Assembly (NCBI GenBank): GCA_010093815.1
Contig: ML996567.1
Source of the DNA: Pseudovirgaria hyperparasitica
Lineage: Eukaryota
Direction: 5' to 3' (one strand)
DNA: 64,000 nucleotides
Below, piece after piece: positions 3,703-30,381 of the stretch. How positions within the stretch are numbered: the stretch's first letter is position 1; each line of letters starts with the position of its first letter. The notes beneath the pieces are model-generated. The model was given only the letters and a program-made list of their open reading frames with translations, made no database searches and was not told where the DNA came from. The translations under genes and the position numbers were made by a program.

Positions 3703-4127
3703 GTTAACGACGGAGTTCTTGTCTCGCCATAACTCTATAAAGGGAGAAGTTGGACATTCAGCAATTCAAGCACGAAGTCACCAGTCGCATGAAATGCAAG
3801 GACCTCGGGGAAGCTCGCCTTATCTTAGGCATAGAGATTGATCAAACCCGGAAAGATCAGATCAGACTTTCTCAGAAGTCCTATTCCCTGAGAATTCTCA
3901 AAAGGTTCGGAATGACAGAATGTAACGGCAGGAAGACTCCAATTGACGCAAACCTCTTCCCAATGAGATCAGAGGATATCGTTGATCAGGAACGTCAATT
4001 AACGTACATGCAATTGATTGGGTCTCTCAATTACCTTGTCACTGGCACTCGTCCAGACCTCGCATTTACTGTCGGCATGTGCGCCACATTTAATGCGAAT
4101 CCCTCAGAACAACATGCACAAGTTGCG
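3703..4127 (+). mobile_element. Ty1/Copia reverse transcriptase (RVT_2) fragment
   Basis: MKCKDLGEARLILGIEI...LSQKSY..RILKRFGM..C..RKTP...YMQLIGSLNYLVTGTRPDLAFTV...NPSEQH. A degenerate 'VNDGVLV' (VDD-like) sits at 3703 in another frame. Confidence 0.9.
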
Positions 4128-4232
4128 TTTGGATTTGCGGTATTCGGATCTGATCCCCAAGAAGCATCGGAGAACATACTGATTTCCATTGGACTTTTGG
4201 ATCTCTTTAGAACAAGGCAATGCTCGATGGTG
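4128..4232 (-). mobile_element. Ty1/Copia RNase H N-terminal fragment, inverted relative to the RT
   Basis: Minus strand reads TIEHCLVLKRSKSPMEISMFSDASWGSDPNTA; (F/Y)SDA(S/D)W(G/A)xD is the start of the Copia RNase H. Confidence 0.75.
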
Positions 4233-5041
4233 TGATCAATGAGTTCCCTGTATTTTGCCGCTTTCTCTTCGTCTGTAAGCTGAGGACTCTCTTGGGAGGG
4301 CGCGGTTTGACGGGTTTCGTGTTGCTCTACCGAGAATGATAAAGGGATGTCAATTATGTCATCATCATTACTCAAATGGACCGATATTCAATGGCGCAGC
4401 TGAATGACCCAACGAACGTTACCCTTGTAGTATGCACTGTTGATGTTGGCAAAGCGGAAAGTCCTTGATTTGTAGTCTTGATGTATAAGCTAGCCGTGAG
4501 CGAAGGAGAAATTACCACAGAAACATGCGGTCAACCTACCTGTTTTGCGGGATGGTTTCCGTAACAACAAGATATTGAGAGTTATAATCATTAAGGTCGT
4601 ATTATATAGTCATACTAGAAACTTCTTGAATATAGATACGAAATAAGATAATATTATGGAGATGAATACTCACAAGATATTCATAGAGGCTTGAAATAGA
4701 GTAATACTAGAGTTCAAGCACGTGATGCCGCGTTGCTCACGCGTTGTCTCTGATGCTAGGCACCCCTTTGTCTTAACTAGGGGTATCAAAGAGACAGAAG
4801 GTTATTCTTGTTTTGGGACATGTCGCAGTAACTGTTCTGGCGTTCGTGAAATGTGACTAGTCGAGATGTAACATGGAACATAATGCCACCATGAACCAGA
4901 CCTTCGATGGATTGACCCACTGTCCAACAGATGCAAACTAGCCTATGAAAAGGGGTCACAATCCCACGAAGAGACAAAGACAAGGCTAGGAAAGCTGCAA
5001 TATCTATAAATATTGTTGGATGCCATACAGTGGTAACAAAC

Positions 5042-6921
5042 CTAATCTAACTCTTCGTGATCCTGGAATGGCCAATGTTCGTCTAGCTCCCTCCTCTCAT
5101 CGTCTGTTTCAGCAGCGTCTAGCATTTCATGTTTGATATATTGCTCTTTCTCCTTTGCTTCATTGTATGATTCATTCGGCACCCATCCATCGATGTTAAC
5201 ACCAATGAAGTCGCGCAGTTTCTGCATTTGTGCATCTGCGTTCTTCTGCTTCGTGTCAATATCGAGGCAGTCTGTGGCTTCTGCTTCGGAGTATTTAGCA
5301 GGGAACCCAGCTCCTTTCGTCGCCGAATTGGCAATATCAGACCAGTAGGCCGACGCATGTACTAGTTCCGCCTTGAGTGATGTATTATCGCCTTCCCACG
5401 GCCTGCTGGCAGTGTCATATAGTCGATTTCTTACAATAAGGTCATATGTTCCCATCGCGTGAAAATGAGGCTTATTGTTGCGATTAGTAAAACCCAGATA
5501 AAAATAGTGGAGCTGTCGTCGGCGGTAAAGTTCCGCCTCCATTTCCTTCTCATTCTCGGTCAAGGAGTCGAAGTTGTCAGGAAGCGTTGGGGGTCGGAAG
5601 TTCTCTGAATCATCGTCGCCATAGTTCTGAAAATGCTTTGGAATCTTTGCTTGAAGGAAAATGGGAAGAATCGCGCTGCGCTGCCAATCGATGACACCAG
5701 TGATCTCGCCGGATCTATTGACGAAGATGTTACTGGGTGAGAGATCTGGGTGACGGATCGTAGGTTGATTCAGTTCCTCTCTGTCAGGAACGATGTGCGG
5801 AGCAACTTTCAGATAGTCCAACAAACTGCCTATTTGCACTTGCGGGTCTACCTTTTGGCGGTCATAAAATTCTCTGTAGAGCGGTTCACGGGGAAAACGT
5901 CGCTCGCCAAATTTTCGAAGCCAGGTCAACTCTCTCTGACCAACCGCCTTCAATAGATCCTCGGAATGTTTCCCTACGCACCACTTGTTAGATATCTGAA
6001 AGTGAGATAATTTAATGGTCTCTTACAGGGGCCTCGATTGATATCTAATTCATCTCGCATTTGATACCACCAAAGTAGTTCACTTGAAGGTCCAATGCAA
6101 AACTTATCTGTTCCCTTTTGGCTGATGTCTGGTGACATATTCGCTGTCGTTATATTGGAGTCCAAGGAATCTTTGTAATATAGACTGCCACTGGCAGGGA
6201 ATCGTATAGCAAAGAGAATCTTTTCAATATCAACGATCTTCTCTACTACATCCATCCTTTCTCGTAACGTCATACTATACCAAGTATCTTCCAACTCTAC
6301 ACCCGGAACTTTCTCCATGATGATATATTCAGACCCAACTTGATTAGATGTCGAGGAGTCCCAACTGAAGACCCTAGGAATTGGAACTCCGTGCAGTCGT
6401 AGAAATTCCATCGTTGCAACTTCGCTGGCGATACCATATTTATGAGGAAGCGTCGAAGGGTATGGAAGGCGCACCATCACCTTCAGTCCATCTTGGAAAG
6501 TAGCTTCAAAAACACGATAAGAACCGCCTTCGGCAACTTTTGTGAAACTAGTAATCTCATCCGAAGAATGGCCGACAGACCTGGCAACAACCTGGCAGAG
6601 TTCGTGGATGTTGAAATACCGTCGTCTCTCAAGGAGGCGCAGGCGTTCATTGTAGCTACAGCGGTGCGGTGCTATTAGGCTAGGTACGCGATTCTTGATG
6701 CTTTAGAGCTACCAAAGCAAGACTTACAGCCATTTGCCAGATGTGTGATTATAGAATGGGTGGTTTGGATCGCTAATGCTTATTGACGCTCCGCTATCCT
6801 TTGGTACAGGTTTTGTTGAAGAAAGTGCTATGTGTAGAGTTGAGAAAAGGTGTGGTCGATGGGTAAAAGAGTGGAACAACAAGGAACGAGGCTTTATGGG
6901 GTTGAAAAGGGTTCTTGGCAT
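5042..6921 (-). CDS. Aminoglycoside-phosphotransferase (APH)-family kinase-like protein, Aim9-like
   Basis: Exons 6921-6728, 6655-6027, 5973-5042. Motifs SGKWLYNE, AEGGSYRVF, SEVATMEF, YIIMEKVPG, RGPW, HPDLSPSNIFV, IDWQ. The basic N-terminus without acidic residues suggests mitochondrial targeting. Confidence 0.88.
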
Positions 6922-12658: not shown

Positions 12659-12972
12659 GCAACGTGTCGAACAGAAAGTGTTGTATTTTGAAGAATTATT
12701 GTTGTTTAATGATGTATGATCGGACGAAGTTTACAGTACATAATAAGGCACGATGATGTTGTATAATATTGAATGAATTGCAACATTTATCAGATTATCT
12801 ACATAAGTCGTTCCCTAGCGTGACACGTGCGTAGTCAAATACGGTCTAACGCTGATTTTAGCCCACTAATGGAAGTTATCTGCTCACTCCAAATGCCCCA
12901 TCACAACATTCACTCCTTATCCGGCCTCTCCGCAAAACACCAAAGCTCCATCTCCAACTTGGCGATGTAGCC

Positions 12973-14298
12973 ATGGCCGATGCCGGCCATTCCAATACGA
13001 CTCCTCTGGATCCACATCAACAACATTTCGACCCTTCACTTGTCGCGCACCATCACAACTTCAAGAATATAACGGCGAGCCACTTTGACGGCTCTGCTTC
13101 ATTACAGCAGTTCCCCAATCTGAGTCAAGGTTATGAGGAGCAACCAAGCCCGAGCGTTCACTCGAACGTACAGCATAATGTTCCCTCCACGCCCAATATA
13201 GGGATTCCAGAACACCAGTCTTTCGACATGGCTCCACCACCCGAAACCACGTTTGGCTCTTTTGCAGACCTCCACGCGTTCGCGCAATCTCATGCTGCGG
13301 CGCATGGATACGCGCTCTCAATCAACACTACTGCGAAGAACCGTGCTCGCGTCAAGCTTGCTTGTGTGTGCTACGGTAACCCAAAGAATACACATAAGCT
13401 CACAGATGAAACCCGAATTCGTAAGAATCGACTGAGCGCAAAGACTGGTTGTCGCATGTGGGTTGAAGGCAAGAAAATGGATGATGGAACCTGGGTCCTA
13501 CGGGTGGGACAAGGAAACCACAATCATGCGGGGCGCAATGTAGAAGAGTGGTCTGTACATCGACGACGGACCTGGGGCCTCGGGGGAGCAGGTGGTGGCA
13601 TTGTCGCAGGCGCTGTACCTGCAGCACAGACGCGTGTAGGCGGCAATGGCTCAGTAGGAGAAATCGTGTGGAAGATCGTCGAGACTGAAATGGCTCGTGG
13701 TTCTGCTGGTAGCGGTATCAATGAGCAAACAGGCGCGCGAGATCGTGGAGTGGGCCGCACAGTGAAGGTACTACAGGAGCGTTTACCTGGTATCCGTATC
13801 TACAAGAGAGATATTTACAACATTCGAGCACAAATCAAAAAGGCCAGACTCGAGCAGGAGCAAGCGCAAGAGAACAACGGCGATACTTCAATGACGGACT
13901 TTGGAGCAAACAGCCAGGATTTTGCAGACCTCGAGTCTCAGCTTGACCCAGCGCTCATGAGACAATGTCAACAAGCCCTTGACAACCAGCAGCAGAACGC
14001 ACAGCTGCAAGGAATGAACAATAATGGCACTCCCTCTCAGCTAATACGGCAACCCTTCATACCTGCGAGCGAACAACAGCTTCGCGCGCATGAGCAAGCG
14101 AACGAAGATGAAGTACTGCAGCTGCGCATCGAGAATCAAGATCTCCGGGATCAGATCGAGAAACTCAAGGCTGAAAGTGGTAGAAATACTAGGGAGGCCG
14201 AGAAAGCCAAAATTGAGTCGCAAAAGCTCAAAGTCCAGGTCGAGCAATTGAAGCTGGAGGTCATCTATCTTCAAACTTCTGAGAAGGATACACAGTAG
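12973..14298 (+). CDS. FAR1/WRKY-GCM1-type Zn-finger protein (Mutator-derived), putative transcription factor with C-terminal coiled coil
   Basis: FGSFADLHAFAQSHAAAHGYALSI...LAC...KTGC...WVLRV...HNH, then RDIYNIR, a Q-rich region and a coiled coil. No DDE domain recognisable; intronless. Confidence 0.8.
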   Translation: MADAGHSNTTPLDPHQQHFDPSLVAHHHNFKNITASHFDGSASLQQFPNLSQGYEEQPSPSVHSNVQHNVPSTPNIGIPEHQSFDMAPPPETTFGSFADLHAFAQSHAAAHGYALSINTTAKNRARVKLACVCYGNPKNTHKLTDETRIRKNRLSAKTGCRMWVEGKKMDDGTWVLRVGQGNHNHAGRNVEEWSVHRRRTWGLGGAGGGIVAGAVPAAQTRVGGNGSVGEIVWKIVETEMARGSAGSGINEQTGARDRGVGRTVKVLQERLPGIRIYKRDIYNIRAQIKKARLEQEQAQENNGDTSMTDFGANSQDFADLESQLDPALMRQCQQALDNQQQNAQLQGMNNNGTPSQLIRQPFIPASEQQLRAHEQANEDEVLQLRIENQDLRDQIEKLKAESGRNTREAEKAKIESQKLKVQVEQLKLEVIYLQTSEKDTQ

Positions 14299-19768: not shown

Positions 19769-22543
19769 CTACCTCCTCGGACAGCCGAGCGACCTCAACG
19801 CCGAACTATCTTGTCCGACCTCACATACACCTGAGTACAACTGATTCGACACACCTCCATTCGGCCCTTGCAGCGTCGAGTCCTCGCTTAGTGTCGACAC
19901 CTTGCTATTCTGCAACGCCAGCGGATGGCAATACGTCGAGCCGCTACACCCACTAGCCGCATTCCGGTTATTGCATTTCTGCAGGCACACGTTGATAAGC
20001 TTGTACTCGCCATTGGCGCAGCGCACTTCTGTCTCTGTGCATTTGCTGTTGGACGGACAGCCGCCGGCAGACGTGCAGAGCTGGATTGAAGGTGTGCTGC
20101 GGACATCGCGCGGGCCGGCTGTGATACCGACGTCGACATCGATGGTGGAGATGATCGCGTCGGCGCCGGCGATGACATGTTTTTCCTCGACTTGCACGAG
20201 GGCTTCTTTGGGTGGTGCAGCAAGGTCAGGGGTGGCGTCTTTCGCGGCTGTGTGGCCGGTGGAGCCTTGCACGCAGAGCGTGGTGTCGTTCCAGGTTGCT
20301 TGCACGGCGTCGAGCCAGAGCTGGGTCATGTTGTAGGCGTTGTCGAGGGTGTAGTAGATGCGGCAGTCTGCGGCCAGATACTTGAATTGAAGGGGCACGT
20401 TGTCGCCATCTCGGATCTGGTCGCGGAGGTTGAAGCCTGCGTAATTTGTGAAAATGGCACTGTCGCGGTTTTGGGGCAGGATGGAGGCGGCTTCGGTGCT
20501 GAGGCCGCTTGCGTAGTCAAAGTCTACGTCGAGGAGGTCTGCTGAGTATAGGCGGGCTCCTCGACTCCCGCTGGCAGCCTGCATGGGTCCGTCGTGTGGT
20601 CGTCCACCGGCTACGATTGTTTTGACGCCGCCTTGGTAGCTCATCATCTCGGCAAAGACAACACAAGCAGAAGAACAGAGGCCGTCGGTAAGCTAAGAGC
20701 TGTCAGTATATCATATTTCGCTTTAACACACGGTCAGATACTAACAAGCACAATGTCCTCTGGGTTCCATGGCCGTTCTGTCGAAATTTGGTTCTCTGGT
20801 CCATACCCATAGGCCACCCAATTGTCGAAAGCAGCTGCCGCAAAATCGAGATCGGACAAGTTGTAGCGCTCCGTAAGGGAATAGGTAGTGTCGAGAAAAG
20901 TGCGAGGACCAGCGTATTCCGCCCAGCTCTGGAACTTTGCCTTAGTATCCGCATTGAGCCTGTCTGTAATAACCCATCTGAAGAAATACAGTCAGTTCTT
21001 GAATATTTCTTCTACCAATGGCAAAGAAAACTTACTCATCAGCAGCCAGGAGTGACCTGTTGTACTGGGCGACTTCGTCGTCCGAATTCGCGAGCGAGTC
21101 CCAGTACGTCGTATGGACTGTTCCCAAAAAGTTGGCCATATCTTGTATATGCCTGCGGCTACCAGCGAATGGCTCCAACTCCGGGAAGAACTGCTTGAAG
21201 GTGTCATAGGCTAGGAAGACTGATCCTCCAGGATTTTGCTGCAGGTCGATCACAACACGCTTTATTTTTGCCTCCTTTGCTCTCGTGATGAATTCACTGA
21301 CAGATGCCGAGAAGTTTCCAATGTCATAACCGTAGAGCTCGAATGTCGGGATACTGAGAACTGCAGTGGAGGAGTCATTGAGAAAGTATCCGGTCAATAC
21401 ACCTCCACCCGTGACAGAGAGATCTCTTTGCACAACGTCCGGGTCTGGGTAGGCGCCAAAGCTCGTTTCCGACCAAGACTGAAGTTCGCTCTCCCCGCCT
21501 TCATTATCATCTTGCCGCTTTGAGGTCGAAACAATAGGGTCATTCAACGGGCATTCGGGGTCACAGGCAGCTGGTAGAAGCCCTAACACAAAGTAGTTGT
21601 AAAAGTCCCCAGGCGTCTTCAGAGGCCCAGTCAAGTCCACCTCGTTGTAGTAAGCAACCCATTGCGTCTCAAGACTGGATCCGTTCTCGAATTTGAAGAC
21701 AAGCGTGTCGCCAGGGTAGAATGTTGCGCCACCACTAAATGCATTCAGGGCACCCATGATTTGCTGCGCAGGATATGACATTAACTGATTGTAGTCGGCG
21801 TGTGGTTCGAGCGTGCCAATAGAGTTCAGAGCTGCGAATGCTGTCAAGTAAGTATCAGGATGCTGGTCATTGATAGACGAAATCGCTGAAACAGTATAAC
21901 CATCTCTATGTGCAAGTATGTCATCTAGACTGCGGGTCAATACTCATCCATTCCAAGGATTCCCTGTGATTTTCTCACCTGTTATGTAGACTTTAGGGAC
22001 CGCCTTGCCGTCTGGAGAGGCAGATGTAATATAGTACGGACTTGAGAATGAGAATGCAGCGAGGATGCCCGAGACCAAGTCGACGTGCCCGTCATGAAAG
22101 GCATATACGACACCTTGCATGTCTGCTTCAAATTCATATTGATTCTTGTATGCGTTGTTGAGCGCATTCTGCTTGATTCTGCTCAACTCGGCGTAAAAAT
22201 CGAAAGCTGGTTGCTGGTACTCTTCGGGGGGCGACTTGAGGTAAGGGATCGTGCTGTGAAATTGCATCGTCGTGTTATAGTACTCGATGAAACGGACAGC
22301 AGGATCCGCGTAGAATGGAACACTCAACAGACACTCGTAGGCATCGCGGGCAAGAAATGCAAGAGCCCCTTCATTGTCGACCGCAGAGATGATCTGCCCA
22401 CAGATAGTCTGCGAAGGGTTGGGTATATCGCCTGCTCCAAGCACTGTTCCGATATCTATTGGCGTTCCCTGGGCATTTGGTGGAGGTGTAACGCACGTCT
22501 GACAAACGAGGCCCAAAAATCCAACAACGTCGACGCCAAACAT
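19769..22543 (-). CDS. Peptidase S41 family (CPAF-like) protein with Cys-rich C-terminal tail
   Basis: Exons 22543-21979, 21924-21036, 20977-20746, 20692-19769. AYECLLSVPF, AFHDGH, AVLSIPTF, VIDLQQNPGG, catalytic-type LTDGLCSSAC, GGRP..GPMQA..GSRG, ADCRIYYT. Confidence 0.9.
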
Positions 22544-23250
22544 GATGAGAGAATGACAACGCACGCGAGCGCAGTGTATGAAAATGAACGACACGAGTCT
22601 GATGCAGTCCGCTCCCCTACAGCCTCATCCTGAGGCGGCCGCCTGCAGTCTTTTACATGATAAGGTGATTAGTTACCAAGTCCCTACACGTGCCTGAGAT
22701 GGTAAGGCTTTTGTCTAAATTAGAGTATGAGGTTGCATGAATTGGGGGCGTTTTGGGTCGCTGTGGCCCCAAAAGCATATGATAGGATTCTGTGGCTGCT
22801 CAAGGGGCTGTAAGTGGCCAGTGGTGAGCGGGCTGAGCCGTTGCGGCCCCTAAAACGAATGTTAGCGACCTCAGCTGATGGGGGCTAGCAGTGAAATCCA
22901 TCCTATCCTGCCGTCCAACAACCCCTACAATCCCTCCAATGTCCCACGACATGCTTTCTAGCCTCATGCTGAAGCACATTAGCAACGCCGTTCTGATTAG
23001 CGAGCGGACGTGTAGTGTGCTGTCCTGAGGCCGACACGACAACGATCATAAGCTTAACCCGCAGCTGTCTCTCCCATGTGTAATCACCACATTTCAGCCT
23101 CATCTGGGCATCCGAGAGTGAGACGTCGGACTTCTGTTCACTAGCTTCGTACCTGTCTCACAAGCGATCTTCTCCTCAGGCTGTGTACGGATAAATTCTT
23201 GGTAGTAATTACATCAGCTGCGTGCAATCATACCTCATCCGAATCTAGGC

Positions 23251-25076
23251 ATGGCGACTCAAAGCCAGGTATATGTCGGCCATGCAGCAATAGCTGCTAC
23301 ACACCAACTCCCGCTAGATACTTACCTTGGCCTTTTCGACAATATATTTAATTCTGAGGACTTTATACATTGGCGTTCAGACGGTAGGTCATGGCAGCTT
23401 CATTATATCGGTGGTCCCGGTTCAGGAAAGGTATGCTACACCATTGCCAACCTCGAGACCAGAACTTCGGGATGTCGGCTCACGATTTCGTGGTTAGACG
23501 ACACTGTCTGCAATCGCTGCACAGTACCTTCGTGATATGAATGGTTCAAGAAATGTCGGTGTTGCCACAATCTTTATCCAAAAGGATGTGGCTTTCCGAG
23601 ACCAGACTTTCATACAAGCATTTCTGGAGAGCTTATACCACCAGTTATCGTATGAGCGCGACGATGGCGGACTAGCTACAGGCGCCTTTCTCTCGTACAA
23701 ACAGGCACTGGACGTCAAGCCCGCGAGATCAATGGCCCACCGACTTAAGTTGCTCCGTAAGGCTGTTTATCCGCTCATCATGAGCCTCCAGAGAGCTTTT
23801 CTGGTCGTAGACGGAATCGACCGCTGCCACCAGTCAGTGACTGATCAGCTGGAAGCCGAGCTTTCGCGGCTTCAGCATTACGGACTCTCCATAATGACCA
23901 CTTCCCGGTTTCCACAATACAGATCTGGCCAAGCCATGTACTGCGATGCTCCTGATCATGATTTACACAGCCCGCCAGATGTACCCGTAACAGTCTTCTG
24001 GGGTTGCAAATGGTGTTGGGCCTCGTCCAAATACACGATTTGCCAGCAGTGCAAAGAGAACGGTGACCTGTGTAATAATTGGTGAGCACCTCTTCTCTCC
24101 GCACCATGTTCCACTAATATGAGATAGTCTCGACGGCGGTCTCTTGTTCGAACCATCTGAGCGTCTAGAAATTGACTTCGCTGTCTCAGACCGCTCGATG
24201 AGATCATTTGTCTCGTGGGACCTGGAAAGAGAGCATGGTGACATCAACTTGAAGTCTGCCAACGATCGGAAACCACCTCTTTCCGCACTGGGAAGATCTC
24301 TGCGCGACAAGCCAAACGCAACGGAAGAGCTTATCGAGAAGATTGTGGAAAGAGCCTCGGGAAACATCACGATAGCCAAGCTGGATCTGGACTCGTTGGC
24401 AAATGTGCAGTCGGTAGAAGCAGCTATATCGAGCTTTGCTGGCGATCGACTTTCCAACAATATTCTTGCACTGTTTGACGACGTGTTGGAGCGAATCAAG
24501 CATTTGACTGAACACGAGCGACACATCACCCTAGCGTCTATCTTGTCAGCCGTGCATGAAGATCATGGTGCACGATTTCAAGACATCGAAAAGTGGATCC
24601 GAGAGTCAAGATTAGAATCTGATGCACAAGGGCATGCTCGCCTGACAGTCGAGGAAATCCTTCGAGCTGCTCGCGGATTTCTTGGACTGAGCAACTGCAA
24701 AGACCAGCTGATCTACCCGTATCATGAGATGCTCAAATTGTATGCAGACGAGCACTATGACGAGGCTCTGTTTTGGGAACATGCACACATGCGATTTGGT
24801 AGGATGAAAAGGTCGGAAACAGTTGACCCGAGTGCACCAGGACGCTTTGGTTCCAATGCTCCTCGACAGATGAAAGCATGGGGAGGCTCACGTGGAGCTA
24901 TACGCGGTGCGTTGAAGTCTGGTGACGCGAATATTCCTGCTTGGAGTGCTGAAAGGACGGTGGCATGGCAAGAAGGAGTGCGGAATGCTTTGGTTCAGGA
25001 CCTTCAGGTCAAGAGAAGACCCCAGGGCGTACCAAAAGACATACGCAACTTACGAAGACAGCCGACGATGTGGTAA
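23251..25076 (+). CDS. NACHT-type (STAND) NTPase with inserted Cys-rich Zn finger; no recognisable effector or repeat domain
   Basis: Exons 23251-23430, 23498-24081, 24128-25076 (5' end uncertain). Walker A GGPGSGK|TT is split by an intron; Walker B FLVVDGIDRC; sensor IMTTSR; helical region IVERASGNITIAKL...F..VLERI. Confidence 0.78.
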
Positions 25077-25798
25077 CACAAACTGCATCTTTCCGCTTCA
25101 CCGTGTATTCAATGAGAAAGATATCAGTAGATTGTAGAATATAAATGATATACTGGCATTTTGATGTGATTGAGGATGAAGTCGAAGGTGCATGTAGGAT
25201 ATGTAGTCTGCCGTATTCAACTAAAAAGAGCTAGCGTATGGCTTCCACCAACCTTGGAACCGCGTGAAAGGACAATAAGAATGCAACTGATGCCTCAGTC
25301 CTGTTATTGAACCACTACGCCAACATGATGACAAAGTACTGTCAGAATCACCACAAAATTGAAGAGTATTGGGCCTTGCAAGGGATCTGAACAGCATGGA
25401 TACCCATAAACATTTCAGCCGTGCTTGCGCAGCATTTCGGCCCCCAAGCCTGACAGCTTCAAAACTGTGATCTCAGTTCATGGTCACAACTCTACTCGAT
25501 ACTACTGTTATACAGATACAGACTTATTGACTTTGCTTTTCGAATATCCGCTCTCTAGCTCTAGCTGTGACTCTCTTCACCGGGCTGGACCGTCAACCCT
25601 TTAAAACCCTTCTCTTTTTCTCAGCTTGCAACACTTCCTATACGAGCTTGACTATTCGCTGCTGTCAATTTCGCTCTCAGTAAGAGTTTCGATGTAAAGC
25701 CTGGATCACGTCTATTTAAGATTTGCGGTCCTTCATGATATTGTATCACACTCTGTAACCGTCCACGACTCACTCACGAAGGTTCATTACGCTTCGAT

Positions 25799-28391
25799 AT
25801 GCACAACATCGCCGCATCTCAGGCGTCACCTTCTGGTGTGGGCATCTGCACTTTCTGCCAACAAAACATTATTGACTCAAACAAGCTCTGGGACTACCAT
25901 CATGCAGATGTCCACTCGGTATGCTCTTCAAGTGCAGAAGGCTGTATATTCTGCGACCAGTTATATGGTGATTATGCAACAAAGCAGCTTGCCTTTCGTC
26001 ACGCAGACTTGAAGGACTGGCCACTCTATAGATGGAGCATTCGTAGACCTGGTATGGTCAGGGAAAGTCTCGAGAATCTTGTTCTCACGTTCCGTCCTAC
26101 CAATGATCCTGTCATAAAAGATACCAGTTTAAGCAGTGAAGCCAATTCATTACAAGAGGAGTCGTTCCTCTTCTTTAGAGGTTAGATCCATTATAATGAC
26201 ATACCGAGCGCTACTAAAGAAAGAAGCCCTTTGCTAACGTGTTCACAGACACGCCTCTGGACACTTCTGACAGGAGACTAGTAGACCGTACAGACTCTGA
26301 GCAGTCGTGGACCCAAGCTAATGACTGGCTCAAGGATTGCATTGCAAACCATCCGAAATGCCGTCAACTCAAGGATACCGACACGTTTATGCCAACGCGA
26401 CTTCTTCGGATTGACTGCCCAGAGCGGTCAAACATCAAGCTAGTCAAGACGGCTAAACACAAAATCAAAGAGCCATATGCGACACTGTCCCATTGCTGGG
26501 GCCTGAAGTCATTCATCAACCTCACTCCGCAGAACAAGAAATGGTTGATTGAGACTGGCGTAAGCTGGGATCGGTTACCACTCAATTTCAAACATGCAAT
26601 TCAGGTTGCGAGGAAGTTGGGACTTCGATACATATGGATAGACTCGCTTTGCATCAAACAAGGACATAAAGGCGACTTCGGTCACGAGGCAAATCTGATG
26701 CACAAAGTGTACCGCGGCTCGTCGTGCAACATTGCGGCGACAGACTCCTCTGATTCGCGCGGTGGACTGTTCCGCGAAAGGAATGTCCGGGATATCGTTC
26801 CTACTATATGCCAGGCTACAGTCCACAGTGTGTCTTTTGGAGACAAGGCATGGCGTGTGATATCAAAACGTTACTGGGAGACCCAATTGCTTGACAAGAC
26901 CTTATACAGCCGAGCATGGGTGTTTCAAGGTATGTAGAGGTCACATGGTCAAACAATGTCCTCACAGCCCTGAATCTAAGCACATGTCTCATAGAACGCA
27001 TGCTTGCGCCGCGAATCCTACACTATTCTAGCGATCAGATCCTGTGGGACTGTGCAACTGTCAGTGCCTGCGAGGCATTCCCAATAGGTATCCCAAAGTT
27101 CATCGACACGACGGCCAAGATCGACCGACATTGGAGAATGCGACTCCGAAACAACAGATCACTCAAATATCGTCCTCTGTCGGGTGAAGAGGACGGCTCG
27201 ATGGAGATATTCTGGAAATCGGCTGTAGAGAACTACTCCCGATGCGATCTCACCCACGGCAAGGACAAGCTAAAAGCCATCTGGGGCATAGCAAAACTCG
27301 TTCGTGACGCAATCGGAGGTCAGAACTTTATAGCTGGCCTATGGTCCTACAGACTCGAAGAGCAGCTTGCGTGGAATGTGATTAGCCATGAGCAGGGCAC
27401 TGGACGGCCAACTGAACGTCCATTTCCCCATCGTCAGCCGAGCTGGTCTTGGGCATCTATGGATGCGATTATCGAAGTGCAGACACGGTTTGGCCCTGAA
27501 CGAACCTTTGTCGTTACTGATCATCTTGATCGTAACATCAATACTCTATTTGAGCACACAGCAACGCTTGAGAGATATCACAAGACACATGAAAAAGACG
27601 AACACACTTGGAAATTGGAGCTTGAAAGAATGGGCAAGAGTCTCGCGGAGATAACGAGGATGTCTGGCAAGGAACGCAGAAACTCTCAACCACGGGACAT
27701 CGACGCCCATCGGCAACAGCCCGAAGAAGAAGACAAAATGCCTGAGTTGACGCCGTTTGGCCCTGGAAAAACCTCTTTCGTTACTGAGGAAGAAGATCGT
27801 AACGATAACACTCTACTCGAGCATAGTACAACACTTGGAAGAGTTCATAAGACACACGAGAAAGACCAGCACAACTGGAAATTAGAGCTTGAAAGAATAG
27901 ACGAGAGCCCGGTAGAAACAGCGAGCATGTCCAGTAAGGAAGATATCAACTCTCAACCATCGGACATTGACGCCCATCGGCAACACCTCGAAGACGAGGA
28001 CATAATGCCTGAACTGACGCCATTGAATTGGAGTATACCGATCAAATGCAACATTGGTGAAGCTCAGGTGGTGAAGTCTGACGAGAGCTGGAAATGGACG
28101 TTTGGATTCCACAGCTCGTTCCTGGTGTATCCGGATGTAGATCCAGGGGCAAAGTCGTTCAAATGCCTGTTTGCTACACTTGCGTACAGCGACGACGAGG
28201 ATTCGTATTCAGGATTGGGTATACTCCTAAATGCAGTCAAGGACACCAAGGACCGCTACTACCGATGCGGATCATTTCGGTTCGAGGCTGTGGACGAGAT
28301 ATCATTCAACACGATGCGAGAGCGGTATATCGGGGTCACGGAAGAGGATGGGTCCTTGAGCGAGGAAATGCATAAGATATGGTTAGATTGA
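25799..28391 (+). CDS. HET-domain (heterokaryon incompatibility) protein
   Basis: Exons 25799-26180, 26249-26929, 26995-28391. GCIFC, WLKDCIANHPKC, PTRLL, YATLSHCWG, YIWIDSLCIKQ, MHKVYRGS..NIAAT, RAWVFQERMLAPR, PSWSWAS. Confidence 0.93.
27489..28022 (+). repeat. Diverged 267-bp (89-aa) tandem duplication within the HET gene
   Basis: Copy 1 at 27489-27755 (FGPERTF...MPELTP) and copy 2 at 27756-28022 (FGPGKTS...MPELTP) are colinear without indels. Confidence 0.95.
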
Positions 28392-30381
28392 GGTGACGAA
28401 CGACTGATGCCTTTTGTTTCGACAGGACCAGCAATGTTGCACAATGTTGAAACAGCAGATCTCCAGTGTCATGACAGTTTTTCGGCCGACGAAGGATGGT
28501 ATTAATAGCGCACTCGCGTTCAACGTGCCCAGTGCCCACACAAGTCTGTTTCAGTGGCAAGAGAAAGGTGGAGGTGTGGATATATGGTAGAGGAGTCAAG
28601 AGTGCCTCGTCGCGAAATCAGGCGGCAAATTTGGCAGCCTGAGGTGCCGGGGCGGGCCGAGGAAAGTGCGACCAGTTGCCCTTGACTGCCCTTGATTATT
28701 GCGCCCATGTTCCCTGCCAAAACTCCCTGCGCGGCACCAACAAGCACGAGTTTTTCTCTTCTTAAGCTTTCTGCACTGCGACATCACCGTGATCTCACTG
28801 GTCCGATTGATGGGAAATTCTTTGCACCCCAACCCCCAGTCCGATTATCATCATGACTCGTGTCTTCCTTTTCTTCTTCGCTCGTTCGGTCGGCCAGACA
28901 CGTCTGTTTTCAGTTTGGCAGTAAAAGTGTCCCTTGGATTGCGCACTTATATGACATGAAAAAGTTGACGGAAGAAGCGGTTTGTCGACACGTCCAGTTG
29001 CCTCCATCCAGGTGTGACATGCAAGACATTGCTGCATATCGGATCAGGGTGATAATGCACAGAATGATACGCAGGGGCGGCGAGCACAGCAGTAAAAGGT
29101 GGAGATAGAGGGTGGAGTCTTCTTCGCTCTTCGTCCTCCTGTTGCTCCGTCCAGCTGCTGCATGCACTCTGCACCGAATCATCCCCCCTGTTGAGTGGGC
29201 CTGCGCAGGGTGCGATTAGGGGTAGTTTTTGATATATGCGAAAGGGCTGTTTAATACGTGAACGTGATAGCTGTATTTTTTAGAAACACCGGCATGCAGG
29301 GTCTACCACATCTCCGATTGGCTAGAAAGTCAGGTCGGCATGACTATCTAGATATCGGACACATCACATCCACGATGATTACAGAAGATGTCCGATCAGC
29401 CCTATTTAACGGTGACGGTTCACGGGCGACTGCGACCCCACCAGGTCGACGGTTAAAGTACAGTAGTAAAAACTGTGAGTGGTAAAGGGAACGTCGGACA
29501 CAGTCTTTGCTTACAACCGTCCCGTTCTGCTGGGCTGAGACTATCACTCCGACTCTTCTCTCACTCACTCTCTAGCCCTACCTTTCCTCAACCAGCAAAT
29601 AGACCAGGTCGCTCAATAAATTCCCTTACCTCTGACCTGCTTTGTCCGGCTACCACTCACTGCAAGCAAGGTCGACGATCCATGCCATATTGTGCATTTG
29701 TCAACCGTTGTCATCATCCTCGTCGCATATTTTGTCGTCGTTACGGCCGTTTGGCTTGTCACTGACTCCGTCACGGACCTTGTGTGTCAATCAACGGAAT
29801 AGCTATGTACGTACAAACCGCGAAAAGCACCCCTTGGGCCGCCGAGGTTGGGTCGTGAAACGAATCACTGGCCACAGTGTATCTATCCCCTTCCTTCATC
29901 GCATGCGGTCCTGTGTTACTGGTCCTGGTTCTGTGCCCTGTGTTGCGTGTTCTGGGTGGTAGTGTGTTGTTATTAGTTGATTACACTTGCAACCGCGGTA
30001 CCACTAGGTAGAGACTGTGCATTATTAATAATACTCCTGGACCTCAAACCTAACCTACAACCCTTTGCCGTCACAAAATACTAATTAACCGGCATTGGCT
30101 ATCTATTCCGCTGGCGTCTCCGCTACAAATCTTAACCCAATCTGCTACCTGCCCACTCCACTCCTCCATTCCTCTTCTCCACCTTTTCTTTCGTCTCCCA
30201 AGCCTCCGAGCGCTGTACAAAACTACTCATCTACTCGTCGTCGCCGTGCCTGTCGCTCGCATTGCTTTTCCGTCGCTCTCTATCTCTAAGAACACACGAG
30301 ATTGTGTAGAGCCGGTATTGGTATTATCGGCTATACCAAGCTTTGCGCCACACCTGCACGTTCATGCTATCCCTAGGAAAG

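Follow-up and report, generated by a model that had tools for sequence, protein, structure and literature searches.

The subject of this analysis is a group of three adjacent genes, referred to here as the trio, in a stretch of 64,000 nucleotides (the window) from contig ML996567.1 (assembly GCA_010093815.1) of the dothideomycete Pseudovirgaria hyperparasitica; a hypothetical protein of this fungus with 570 amino acids, P0001, matches exon 3 of the middle gene at 100% identity. The trio consists of a gene for an S41/CPAF-like serine peptidase on the minus strand, a gene for a STAND (signal transduction ATPase with numerous domains) nucleoside triphosphatase (NTPase) of the NPHP3_N/NACHT clade on the plus strand, and a gene for a HET-domain protein on the plus strand, all of them intact and spliced. 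The peptidase gene (19769–22543) has four exons (22543–21979, 21924–21036, 20977–20746 and 20692–19769) that specify 869 amino acids. Between its start codon and that of the divergently oriented NTPase gene lie 707 bp (22544–23250), and this head-to-head intergenic region is presumed to be a bidirectional promoter. The NTPase gene (23251–25076), whose product contains a nucleotide-oligomerization domain (NOD) only, has three exons (23251–23430, 23498–24081 and 24128–25076; 570 amino acids), and its stop codon is followed, after 722 bp, by the start codon of the co-oriented HET gene (25799–28391), also with three exons (25799–26180, 26249–26929 and 26995–28391; 819 amino acids). A sequence-only reading of the window had placed the three genes in these positions and orientations, with gaps of about 700 and 720 bp and with housekeeping-type genes on either side, and it was right in every detail.

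The gene models were compared with contigs from two public runs of one sample. All seven predicted GT..AG introns of the trio are skipped exactly by these contigs, as are four introns in two neighbouring genes; because the contigs skip introns, the runs, which carry no RNA label, were read as cDNA. The trio genes are transcribed as three separate spliced transcripts, that of the HET gene running from about position 25590 to at least 29325. The HET transcript contig extends roughly 0.55–0.9 kb past the stop codon (window 28392–29325), to 28953 in one run and to 29325 in the other, and this extension is either an unusually long 3' untranslated region or an overlapping transcript.

STAND NTPases are recognized by a Walker A motif GxxxxGK[ST], a Walker B motif hhhhD..D and a sensor-1 arginine within TSR. 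The window NTPase carries GGPGSGKT as Walker A (23410–23500, read from the sequence and split by intron 1), LVVDGIDRC as Walker B and TTSR as sensor. Full-length P0001 matched the Pfam family NPHP3_N (PF24883) at 6.6e-16, with 59.4 bits against a cut-off of 24.8, and exon 2 alone gave 3.9e-7; P0001 also carries PF24883 in its precomputed annotation. The Pfam NACHT family proper (PF05729, cut-off 26.7 bits) stayed below threshold, at 13.1 bits on P0001 and 23.3 bits on a second family member, P0091, and we therefore name the protein a NACHT-clade/NPHP3_N NTPase and not a Pfam NACHT protein. The earlier description as a NACHT NTPase with neither effector nor repeats thus holds for the clade and for both absences, but not for the strict family name.

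An exhaustive profile search with exon 3 returned 174 family representatives at E<=1e-3, 105 of them at E<=1e-10; many are 480–600 amino acids long and match at roughly residues 256–480, which is the architecture of the window NTPase. Those with a species name belong to Lindgomyces, Ascochyta, Apiospora and several species of Colletotrichum, and so represent the Dothideomycetes and the Sordariomycetes. Seventeen full-length members (482–598 amino acids) were aligned end to end and share one order of features: a stretch HPA..H....DI...LFD, GGPGSGKT, FL[VI]VD..DRC, TSR, a Cys cluster, a loop, a helical and winged-helix part, and a tail that is not conserved. Across these 17 proteins G54, G57, G59, K60 and D165 are invariant and D168 and R197 nearly so. 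The Cys cluster (23942–24128), which the family alignment places after the TSR sensor strand and which spans intron 2, contains six invariant cysteines (C209, C230, C233, C242, C245 and C252) and a nearly invariant one (C255). Its C-x2-C spacing suggests that it probably binds zinc; no ZZ or other zinc-finger family matched it in Pfam at E<=1, and its ZZ-like look is a resemblance only. The loop that follows, WDLEREHGDLGL..KPPLS, is near-invariant and defines the short NTPase family. In the window it forms part of the segment W[DN]LEREHGDLGL..KPPLS.LG (24216–24293, residues 285–310 of P0001), the proposed docking surface for the HET protein.

None of the 17 aligned members has an N-terminal effector, only about 25–50 residues (about 25 in the window protein) preceding the P-loop domain. 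No C-terminal repeat family (WD40, ANK, TPR or LRR) was found with Pfam in the window NTPase or in P0001, and the family ends about 230 amino acids past the nucleotide-binding domain, apart from a disordered tail. The NTPase is a member of a real, conserved family and not a broken or truncated NOD-like receptor (NLR). Nor is it an NLR in the tripartite sense, since the protein has neither superstructure-forming repeats nor an effector domain in cis. An AlphaFold2 model of the NTPase (mean predicted local distance difference test score, pLDDT, 77.8; predicted template-modelling score 0.75) gave the loop a pLDDT of 91–97 and predicted residues 480–570 to be a disordered tail. Foldseek searches with this model matched STAND proteins at E-values of 3e-7 to 5e-5, among them the wheat resistosome (9h2l, 3.4e-7), CED-4 (2a5y, 7.4e-7), Apaf-1 (3sfz, 6.7e-6) and MalT (8bob, 2.3e-5), and matched Cdc6/ORC as well. 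In the Atlas the NTPase falls among fungal NPHP3_N/NACHT proteins, in a cluster of its own with 85 members from Ascomycota, and its structure neighbours there are fungal NACHT-ANK proteins at TM scores of 0.53–0.64. Two short family members with NPHP3_N only, P0225 and P0229, are labelled 'TOL protein' or 'tol protein' by their sources; the label is misleading and has probably spread from fused or merged NTPase–HET models.

The HET protein consists, in order, of an N-terminal Cys/His domain, the HET domain, a variable linker and a C-terminal beta-rich domain. Exon 1 (25799–26180) encodes the Cys/His domain, with the pattern CxxC..W..HH..CxFC..YRWxIR, which we propose to be an adaptor that docks on the NTPase. 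This domain matched no Pfam family at E<=1. In an alignment of 26 sequences of the subfamily (A3), ten of its residues are invariant (C4, C7, W18, H21, C36, C39, R66, W67, R70 and F86). The Pfam HET match (PF06985; 2e-30, 106.5 bits against a cut-off of 22.5) covers positions 1–145 of the 146 in the profile and lies at 26476–26928, corresponding to residues 87–237 of the open reading frame (ORF) 26218–26937; the domain continues in exon 3 with WVFQERMLAPR. Tandem Repeats Finder located a tandem duplication of 267 nt (89 amino acids) at 27488–28021, with 2.0 copies and 77% matching. The duplication, which can also be recognized in the translated protein, falls within the variable linker that joins the conserved core to the beta-rich domain; the homologues inspected have a shorter linker without a repeat.

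The peptidase gene matched two Pfam families, PDZ_CPAF_rel (1.1e-22, 80.8 bits against a cut-off of 27) and Peptidase_S41 (3.7e-7, 30.3 bits against 24). Its product begins with a signal-like hydrophobic stretch and contains eight N-x-S/T sequons and 20 cysteines, with a Cys-rich C-terminal part; classical signal peptides are present in homologues, e.g. those of L009 and L014, two of the loci described below. Every lineage has conserved the motifs DLQQNxGG and TDGxC[AS]S[AT]C, and the protease is therefore probably active. By comparison with S41 motifs, these conserved stretches may include the catalytic serine. Exon 2 of the gene found nothing in the Protein Data Bank (PDB) by sequence at E<=1.

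To follow the trio beyond the window, metagenome contigs were scanned with the NTPase family alignment, which yielded 22 loci, and these were searched by tblastn with the three spliced window proteins. A HET gene adjoins the NTPase gene in all ten loci with at least 1 kb of downstream sequence (L001, L002, L008, L009, L010, L013, L014, L019, L020 and L021). An S41 gene lies upstream and divergent in seven of the eight loci with at least 1 kb of upstream sequence (L001, L002, L006, L009, L014, L019 and L021), and is also head-to-head in L003, where the upstream flank is 0.9 kb. Nine loci (L004, L005, L007, L011, L012, L016, L017, L018 and L022) are too short on either side to be informative. 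As several loci are near-duplicates (L001/L002, L006/8/9/10 and L019/20), the informative set collapses to about seven lineages, in which identity to the window proteins is 46–53% for S41, 34–39% for the NTPase and 38–45% for HET. The gap between the S41 and NTPase genes, estimated from the ends of high-scoring segment pairs (HSPs), is roughly 0.3–1 kb in all eight loci with the pair (L001, L002, L003, L006, L009, L014, L019 and L021). The head-to-head arrangement of S41 and NTPase never changes among the loci with both genes. The orientation of the HET gene varies: in most lineages it runs towards the NTPase gene (convergent), whereas the window and L019/L020 have the two genes co-oriented.

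Nothing else in the neighbourhood travels with the trio. None of 311 other window ORFs of at least 70 amino acids matched any of the loci at 1e-5, while the trio accounted for 149 HSP rows, and all-against-all comparison between lineages found only the trio genes shared, together with one extra ORF common to two lineages. The flanking genes are ordinary and unrelated (cytochrome b561, GNAT, ubiquitin E1, F-box, ribosomal protein S23 and DUF3659); L014 also has a second HET gene in its flank. Among the 38 flank ORFs scanned, neither a transposase nor a Starship gene was found. Recurrence of the trio in at least six divergent lineages with unrelated flanks places the arrangement far beyond chance. 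Maximum-likelihood trees of the three proteins also agree: the pairs L001/L002, L009/L014 and L019/L021 have 100% bootstrap support in each, and the window is nearest to L001/L002 in each. Conserved adjacency, the check named in the sequence-only reading, thus holds for the HET gene without exception and for the S41 gene with one exception among informative loci. In named genomes, NTPase and HET matches lie on contigs of equal size in Lindgomyces ingoldianus (1,028,036 bp), in Colletotrichum incanum (262,547 bp) and on one JGI contig (19,582 bp); equal contig size is weaker evidence of linkage than observed adjacency. The S41 gene is, on these data, a genuine third member of the group, and its conserved place head-to-head with the NTPase gene, like the agreement of its tree with the other two, speaks for some functional coupling. 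Within the trio the NTPase evolves about twice as fast as its neighbours, with a median terminal branch of 0.67 as against 0.35 for S41 and 0.38 for HET, despite its invariant loop and Cys cluster. Just past the S41 gene of L014, at 4044–5768 on the minus strand, lies the second HET ORF (HET match 1.2e-11); it is unrelated to that of the trio and hints at a HET-rich neighbourhood.

The closely related loci L001 (5880–14458) and L002 (411–8977) share only the 8.6-kb block that carries the trio, at 95% nucleotide identity, and their flanks cannot be aligned. The shared block starts about 390 bp past the S41 stop codon and has its other end about 65 bp ahead of the HET start codon, and its G+C content is about 49–64% as against about 37–48% in the flanks. 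The block could reflect movement of the trio as a unit, paralogous copies, rearranged flanks or a chimeric assembly. A palindromic element with a MITE-like (miniature inverted-repeat transposable element) look was noticed in L001 (5694–5878 and 9515–9561), at the left edge of the shared block, its arms of 39–45 nt being 91–92% complementary; one arm recurs in the S41–NTPase intergenic region, and a related piece is inverted in L002 at 3911–4083. A seemingly raised divergence of the HET proteins of these two loci (87% amino acid identity) was absent at the nucleotide level and was discarded as an artefact of HSP stitching.

The relation between the NTPase and the HET protein was examined through longer relatives of the NTPase. 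Of the 19 that exceed 700 amino acids, 18 have a Pfam HET domain on the C-terminal side of their NOD part, the remaining one being an ordinary NACHT-ankyrin protein. The five fused sequences inspected have the order NPHP3_N, Cys cluster, helical part, Ser/Thr-rich linker, HET N-terminal domain lacking its Met, HET domain and the usual C-terminal end, and the linker is about as long as the disordered tail of the window NTPase. The family-defining loop behaves differently in the two forms. It is intact in all 20 split NTPases, whereas the EHGD..PPLS signature is kept in none of the 18 fused proteins and the stretch is deleted in several; the Cys cluster is retained in the fused proteins that cover that region. 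A similar difference is seen on the HET side, where the Trp before HH in the N-terminal domain is present in all 14 split-type proteins in which the motif could be located (27 tried) and absent in all six such fused proteins (18 tried). Loss of the loop in fusions would fit a docking surface that is needed only between separate chains.

Co-folding was applied to the pair from Lindgomyces (NTPase residues 1–478 with HET residues 1–520). The pair scored 0.62 (runs 0.68, 0.00 and 0.62) and passed the calibrated mark, the best of three controls scoring 0.00. On the NTPase side (P0091) the predicted interface comprises the loop (295–296 and 308–317), the helices that follow it (344–357 and 370–376), the conserved N-terminal stretch (18–22) and two P-loop residues (55–56). 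On the HET side it lies in the N-terminal Cys/His domain (15–19, 66–78, 85–90 and 109–115) and includes the invariant W18, R66, W67, R70 and F86. A PDB search by sequence found no related solved complex, the NTPase profile giving P-loop-level matches only; since no similar complex has been solved, recall of a known structure by the co-folding program is unlikely. The prediction supports, but does not show, binding of the NTPase to the HET protein. Together with the adjacency, the congruent trees and the fused proteins, it lends support to the earlier suggestion of a split switch, in which the NTPase and the HET effector are separate proteins.

We consider it on balance probable that the trio, a conserved module of filamentous ascomycetes, is a split NOD–HET death switch tied by gene linkage to a secreted S41 protease. 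According to this proposal, the NTPase and HET proteins would be the two halves of a NOD–HET protein that exists as a single chain in other fungi. The EREHGDLGL..KPPLS loop, with neighbouring helices and residues next to the P-loop, would dock on the HET protein at its invariant N-terminal Cys/His domain. If the NTPase behaves like other STAND proteins, its oligomerization, dependent on nucleotide, would then gather HET domains and lead to HET-dependent cell death; both the death and any NAD+ chemistry would follow from what the literature reports of HET domains. The S41 protease, transcribed head-to-head and co-inherited, would most likely be a co-regulated output, set free or put to use in the response at a lumenal or extracellular site, or else the thing monitored.

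Several observations weigh against this proposal. With its signal peptide, sequons and many cysteines, the S41 protein is not expected to meet a cytosolic NTPase or HET protein, and one locus, L015, has about 2 kb upstream of its NTPase gene without an S41 gene. The adjacency sample consists of 22 metagenomic contigs from about seven lineages. The fused proteins are known as protein sequences without DNA context, and in some of them the gene model could have joined two co-oriented neighbouring genes; they would then count as 18 further cases of adjacency, though not of fusion. That the Lindgomyces proteins are cognate is an assumption made from the equal size of the contigs on which they lie. 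One of the three co-folding runs scored 0.00, agreement between runs was at least 0% of contacts and the pLDDT of the partners was at least 70, and the mark itself, reached by 51 of the 78 solved complexes and by 2 of the 108 mismatched pairs, was calibrated mostly on microbial pairs. The sub-threshold Pfam NACHT score belongs here as well. Finally, a model of the HET protein (pLDDT 71) had no Foldseek match in the PDB at E<=0.001, TIR domains included, and thus the TIR link, the cell-death activity and the biochemistry of HET are taken from the literature.

A narrower explanation is that the NTPase and HET proteins form a real two-part system and that the S41 gene is a linked passenger, held in place by a shared promoter region or by short distance. 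Such a passenger would account for the secretory nature of S41 beside two proteins without a signal peptide, for L015, which has no S41 gene within about 2 kb, and for the 18 fused relatives, which join NOD and HET only. It is hard to reconcile with the head-to-head S41 gene in seven of eight informative loci and in L003, across deep lineages in which every other neighbour has changed and whose proteins are no more than 46–55% (S41) and 34–44% (NTPase) identical, and with an S41 tree that mirrors the other two, as neutral linkage rarely survives such rearrangement. We regard the passenger explanation as unlikely. The sequence-only reading had itself warned that the S41 link could be incidental because fungal S41 proteins are often secreted; the signal peptide is indeed there, but the conserved linkage and agreeing gene trees speak against the warning.

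A second possibility is that the trio is a heterokaryon-incompatibility (allorecognition) locus at which divergent haplotypes trigger death after hyphal fusion, as had been suggested for the window. In Neurospora and Podospora, according to the available text of two papers, a HET gene and an adjacent partner determine incompatibility (PMC10890737, PMC10197012), and the window HET gene has its recent 89-amino-acid internal duplication in a variable part. The same kind of text states, however, that het genes make up only a small part of all HET genes (PMC12881547, PMC10197012, PMC10890737). Same-lineage contigs from different samples, a very small set, are 99.95–99.97% identical over 7.5–8.2 kb, and L001 and L002 differ evenly, at 92–98% identity per 300 bp, with no hypervariable segment. 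This tiny sample of nearly identical contigs gives no sign of allorecognition, and we consider the label distinctly unlikely to apply.

A third explanation denies the module any function in death: the NTPase would be an assembly, trafficking or regulatory factor for S41, and the HET protein a non-lethal partner. The NTPase and S41 genes do share a promoter region, a 2026 paper ties one fungal NACHT protein to unconventional secretion in the portion available (PMC13311144), and the biochemical activity of HET is described as still unknown in the excerpts of two papers (PMC10197012, PMC10890737). Against this, the coupling found through fusions, interface and loop loss is between NTPase and HET and not between NTPase and S41, the signal peptide of the S41 protein is of the ordinary kind, so that no unconventional route is needed, and a HET domain by itself is reported to suffice for cell death in the available parts of PMC10197012 and PMC12881547. 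We judge this explanation very unlikely. Chance adjacency or ordinary synteny of three large gene families, for which one might cite the second, unrelated HET gene near the trio of L014 and the numerous HET and NLR-like genes of Pezizomycotina (about one adjacency of a HET and an NLR-like gene per genome would be expected, by our own estimate from typical copy numbers), is refuted by the recurrence of these three subfamilies together in at least six lineages sharing no other flank gene, by their congruent trees and by the existence of fusions.

The proposed split switch with its coupled protease was then compared with known fungal death systems. The NWD2/HET-S pair, one of the amyloid-signalling NLR–effector pairs of Podospora and further fungi, had been cited as an example of signalling in trans, and it resembles the trio in having adjacent genes, an NTPase with a short N-terminus and an effector acted on in trans, as far as the available text of PMC9815663 and PMC12881547 describes it. 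The effector of that pair is a HeLo protein, whereas that of the trio is a HET protein; the NTPase of the trio has no WD40, ANK or TPR repeats, and a protease gene belongs to the unit. NWD2/HET-S relies on an amyloid template, whereas the contact predicted for the trio is between folded surfaces. A shared amyloid motif was sought and rejected: the first 34 residues of the NTPase scored 23 against HET and 29 against S41, with shuffle means of 24.2 and 27.3, and no other frame of the window scored above 40 against the NTPase N-terminus in local alignment. With no shared amyloid-type motif above shuffled sequences, the NWD2/HET-S mechanism does not apply.

HET-E as well as HET-D and HET-R (the HNWD proteins) likewise combine a HET domain with a NACHT-clade NTPase that is proposed to control it. 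In HNWD proteins the HET domain is N-terminal and in cis and is accompanied by a WD40 sensor, whereas the trio is split, or fused in the order NOD then HET, and has no repeats; moreover, the HET protein of the trio, unlike HNWD, keeps its own N- and C-terminal domains. In het-c/pin-c of Neurospora the partner of the HET protein is a secretory-pathway protein. The het-B locus of Podospora (Bh/Bp, PII-like) is similar to the trio in pairing a non-NLR HET protein that has extra domains with a neighbour gene, over long evolutionary distances and in variable orientation, according to the available portion of PMC10890737. The partners at these two loci are HET-C or PII-like and each locus has two genes, whereas the partners in the trio are a STAND ATPase and an S41 protease and neither an incompatibility phenotype nor polymorphism is known for it.

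In gasdermin/protease clusters (het-Q1/het-Q2), as outlined in the available sections of PMC12881547 and PMC10197012, a death effector likewise shares its gene cluster with a serine protease and, in some cases, an NLR-type sensor. The protease of those clusters is of the S8 or CHAT type, in contrast to the S41/CPAF-like enzyme with a signal peptide found here, for which cleavage of a cytosolic effector is unlikely; a direct protease-to-effector step in the cytosol, in the manner of gasdermins, is doubtful given that signal peptide. No gasdermin family match was found with Pfam in the trio or in the ORFs scanned around it. The peptidase also resembles the fungal family of secreted S41/CPAF-like proteases to which AvrStb9 of Zymoseptoria tritici belongs; by the descriptions available these are large proteins, of about 700–870 amino acids, that have a signal peptide, an S41 C-terminal-processing-peptidase domain and a CPAF-like structure and are conserved across ascomycetes (PMC10208482, PMC5567314). 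A related protein of the basidiomycete Flammulina, FvSerP, is reported in the accessible part of PMC5567314 to have caspase-like activity. The S41 protein of the trio was likened to AvrStb9 and FvSerP by shared Pfam families only, and the portions available of the AvrStb9 and FvSerP papers (PMC10208482, PMC5567314) make no mention of NACHT, 'heterokaryon' or HET.

The best structural matches of the NTPase, the Apaf-1/CED-4 apoptosome and the plant resistosomes, follow the logic proposed for it, in which a NOD assembles a death machine. Identity to them is 10–14%, and, unlike them, the trio NTPase has no CARD, WD40 or LRR, its partner is a HET protein and the linked protease is not a caspase. 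A bolder form of the proposal, which we put forward tentatively and regard as rather doubtful, is that the trio is a counterpart of the apoptosome or inflammasome built from unrelated parts: the NTPase would recruit the HET protein via a non-amyloid loop and would be wired, through the shared promoter, to a caspase-like S41/CPAF protease of the AvrStb9 family. Two versions can be envisaged. Either the system would be a self-guard of a secreted weapon, the NTPase–HET pair monitoring the cell's own protease and killing the cell if the protease is blocked or mislocalized, or the protease would serve as a second arm of execution, set free from the vacuole or the secretory pathway while the cell dies through HET. 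If the apoptosome-like proposal were true, a widespread 'core effector' protease family would be tied to fungal innate immunity, and many orphan HET genes would gain their first defined upstream activator.

The trio would be a new form of a familiar kind of system, the NLR-type death module that fungi encode in a small cluster of genes. Known clusters in the available text of two reviews are NLR/amyloid-effector, gasdermin/protease and HET/PII-like pairs (PMC10197012, PMC12881547). Neither the trio, nor the short NTPase family with its Cys cluster, nor fusions with NOD ahead of HET were found described in the available portions of the reviews, of NLR surveys (PMC4986451, PMC9815663), of het papers (PMC10890737, PMC11138114) or of the S41 papers, in agreement with the earlier impression that the arrangement had not been described; the neighbour tables of PMC9815663 could list such pairs. 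Few gene families of filamentous fungi are as abundant, or as poorly understood, as the HET genes, called 'mysterious players' and lacking a known activator outside HET-NACHT-WD NLRs in the text available of PMC10197012. The module would give one HET subfamily a defined and conserved upstream partner, and the predicted docking interface is concrete and can be mutated, hence is testable. It also provides natural split and fused forms of one machine, and would represent signalling in trans by fungal NLR-type ATPases by a route other than amyloid templating. The genetic link to secreted S41/CPAF-like proteases was unexpected; these include the cloned avirulence factor AvrStb9 and are suspected of caspase-like roles, in the parts available of PMC10208482 and PMC5567314. 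As P. hyperparasitica lives as a hyperparasite on rust fungi, the module may be relevant to conflict between fungi.

Elsewhere in the window, the genes neighbouring the trio are ordinary and encode a tRNA methyltransferase, an FGGY kinase, the product of an unnamed spliced gene, a major facilitator superfamily transporter, NTE1 and Paf1. Two further ORFs lie outside the module. One, at 12862–14298 on the plus strand, has a FAR1 DNA-binding domain (1e-6) and may be transposase-derived; the other, at 680–2062 on the minus strand, has a DUF7600 domain.

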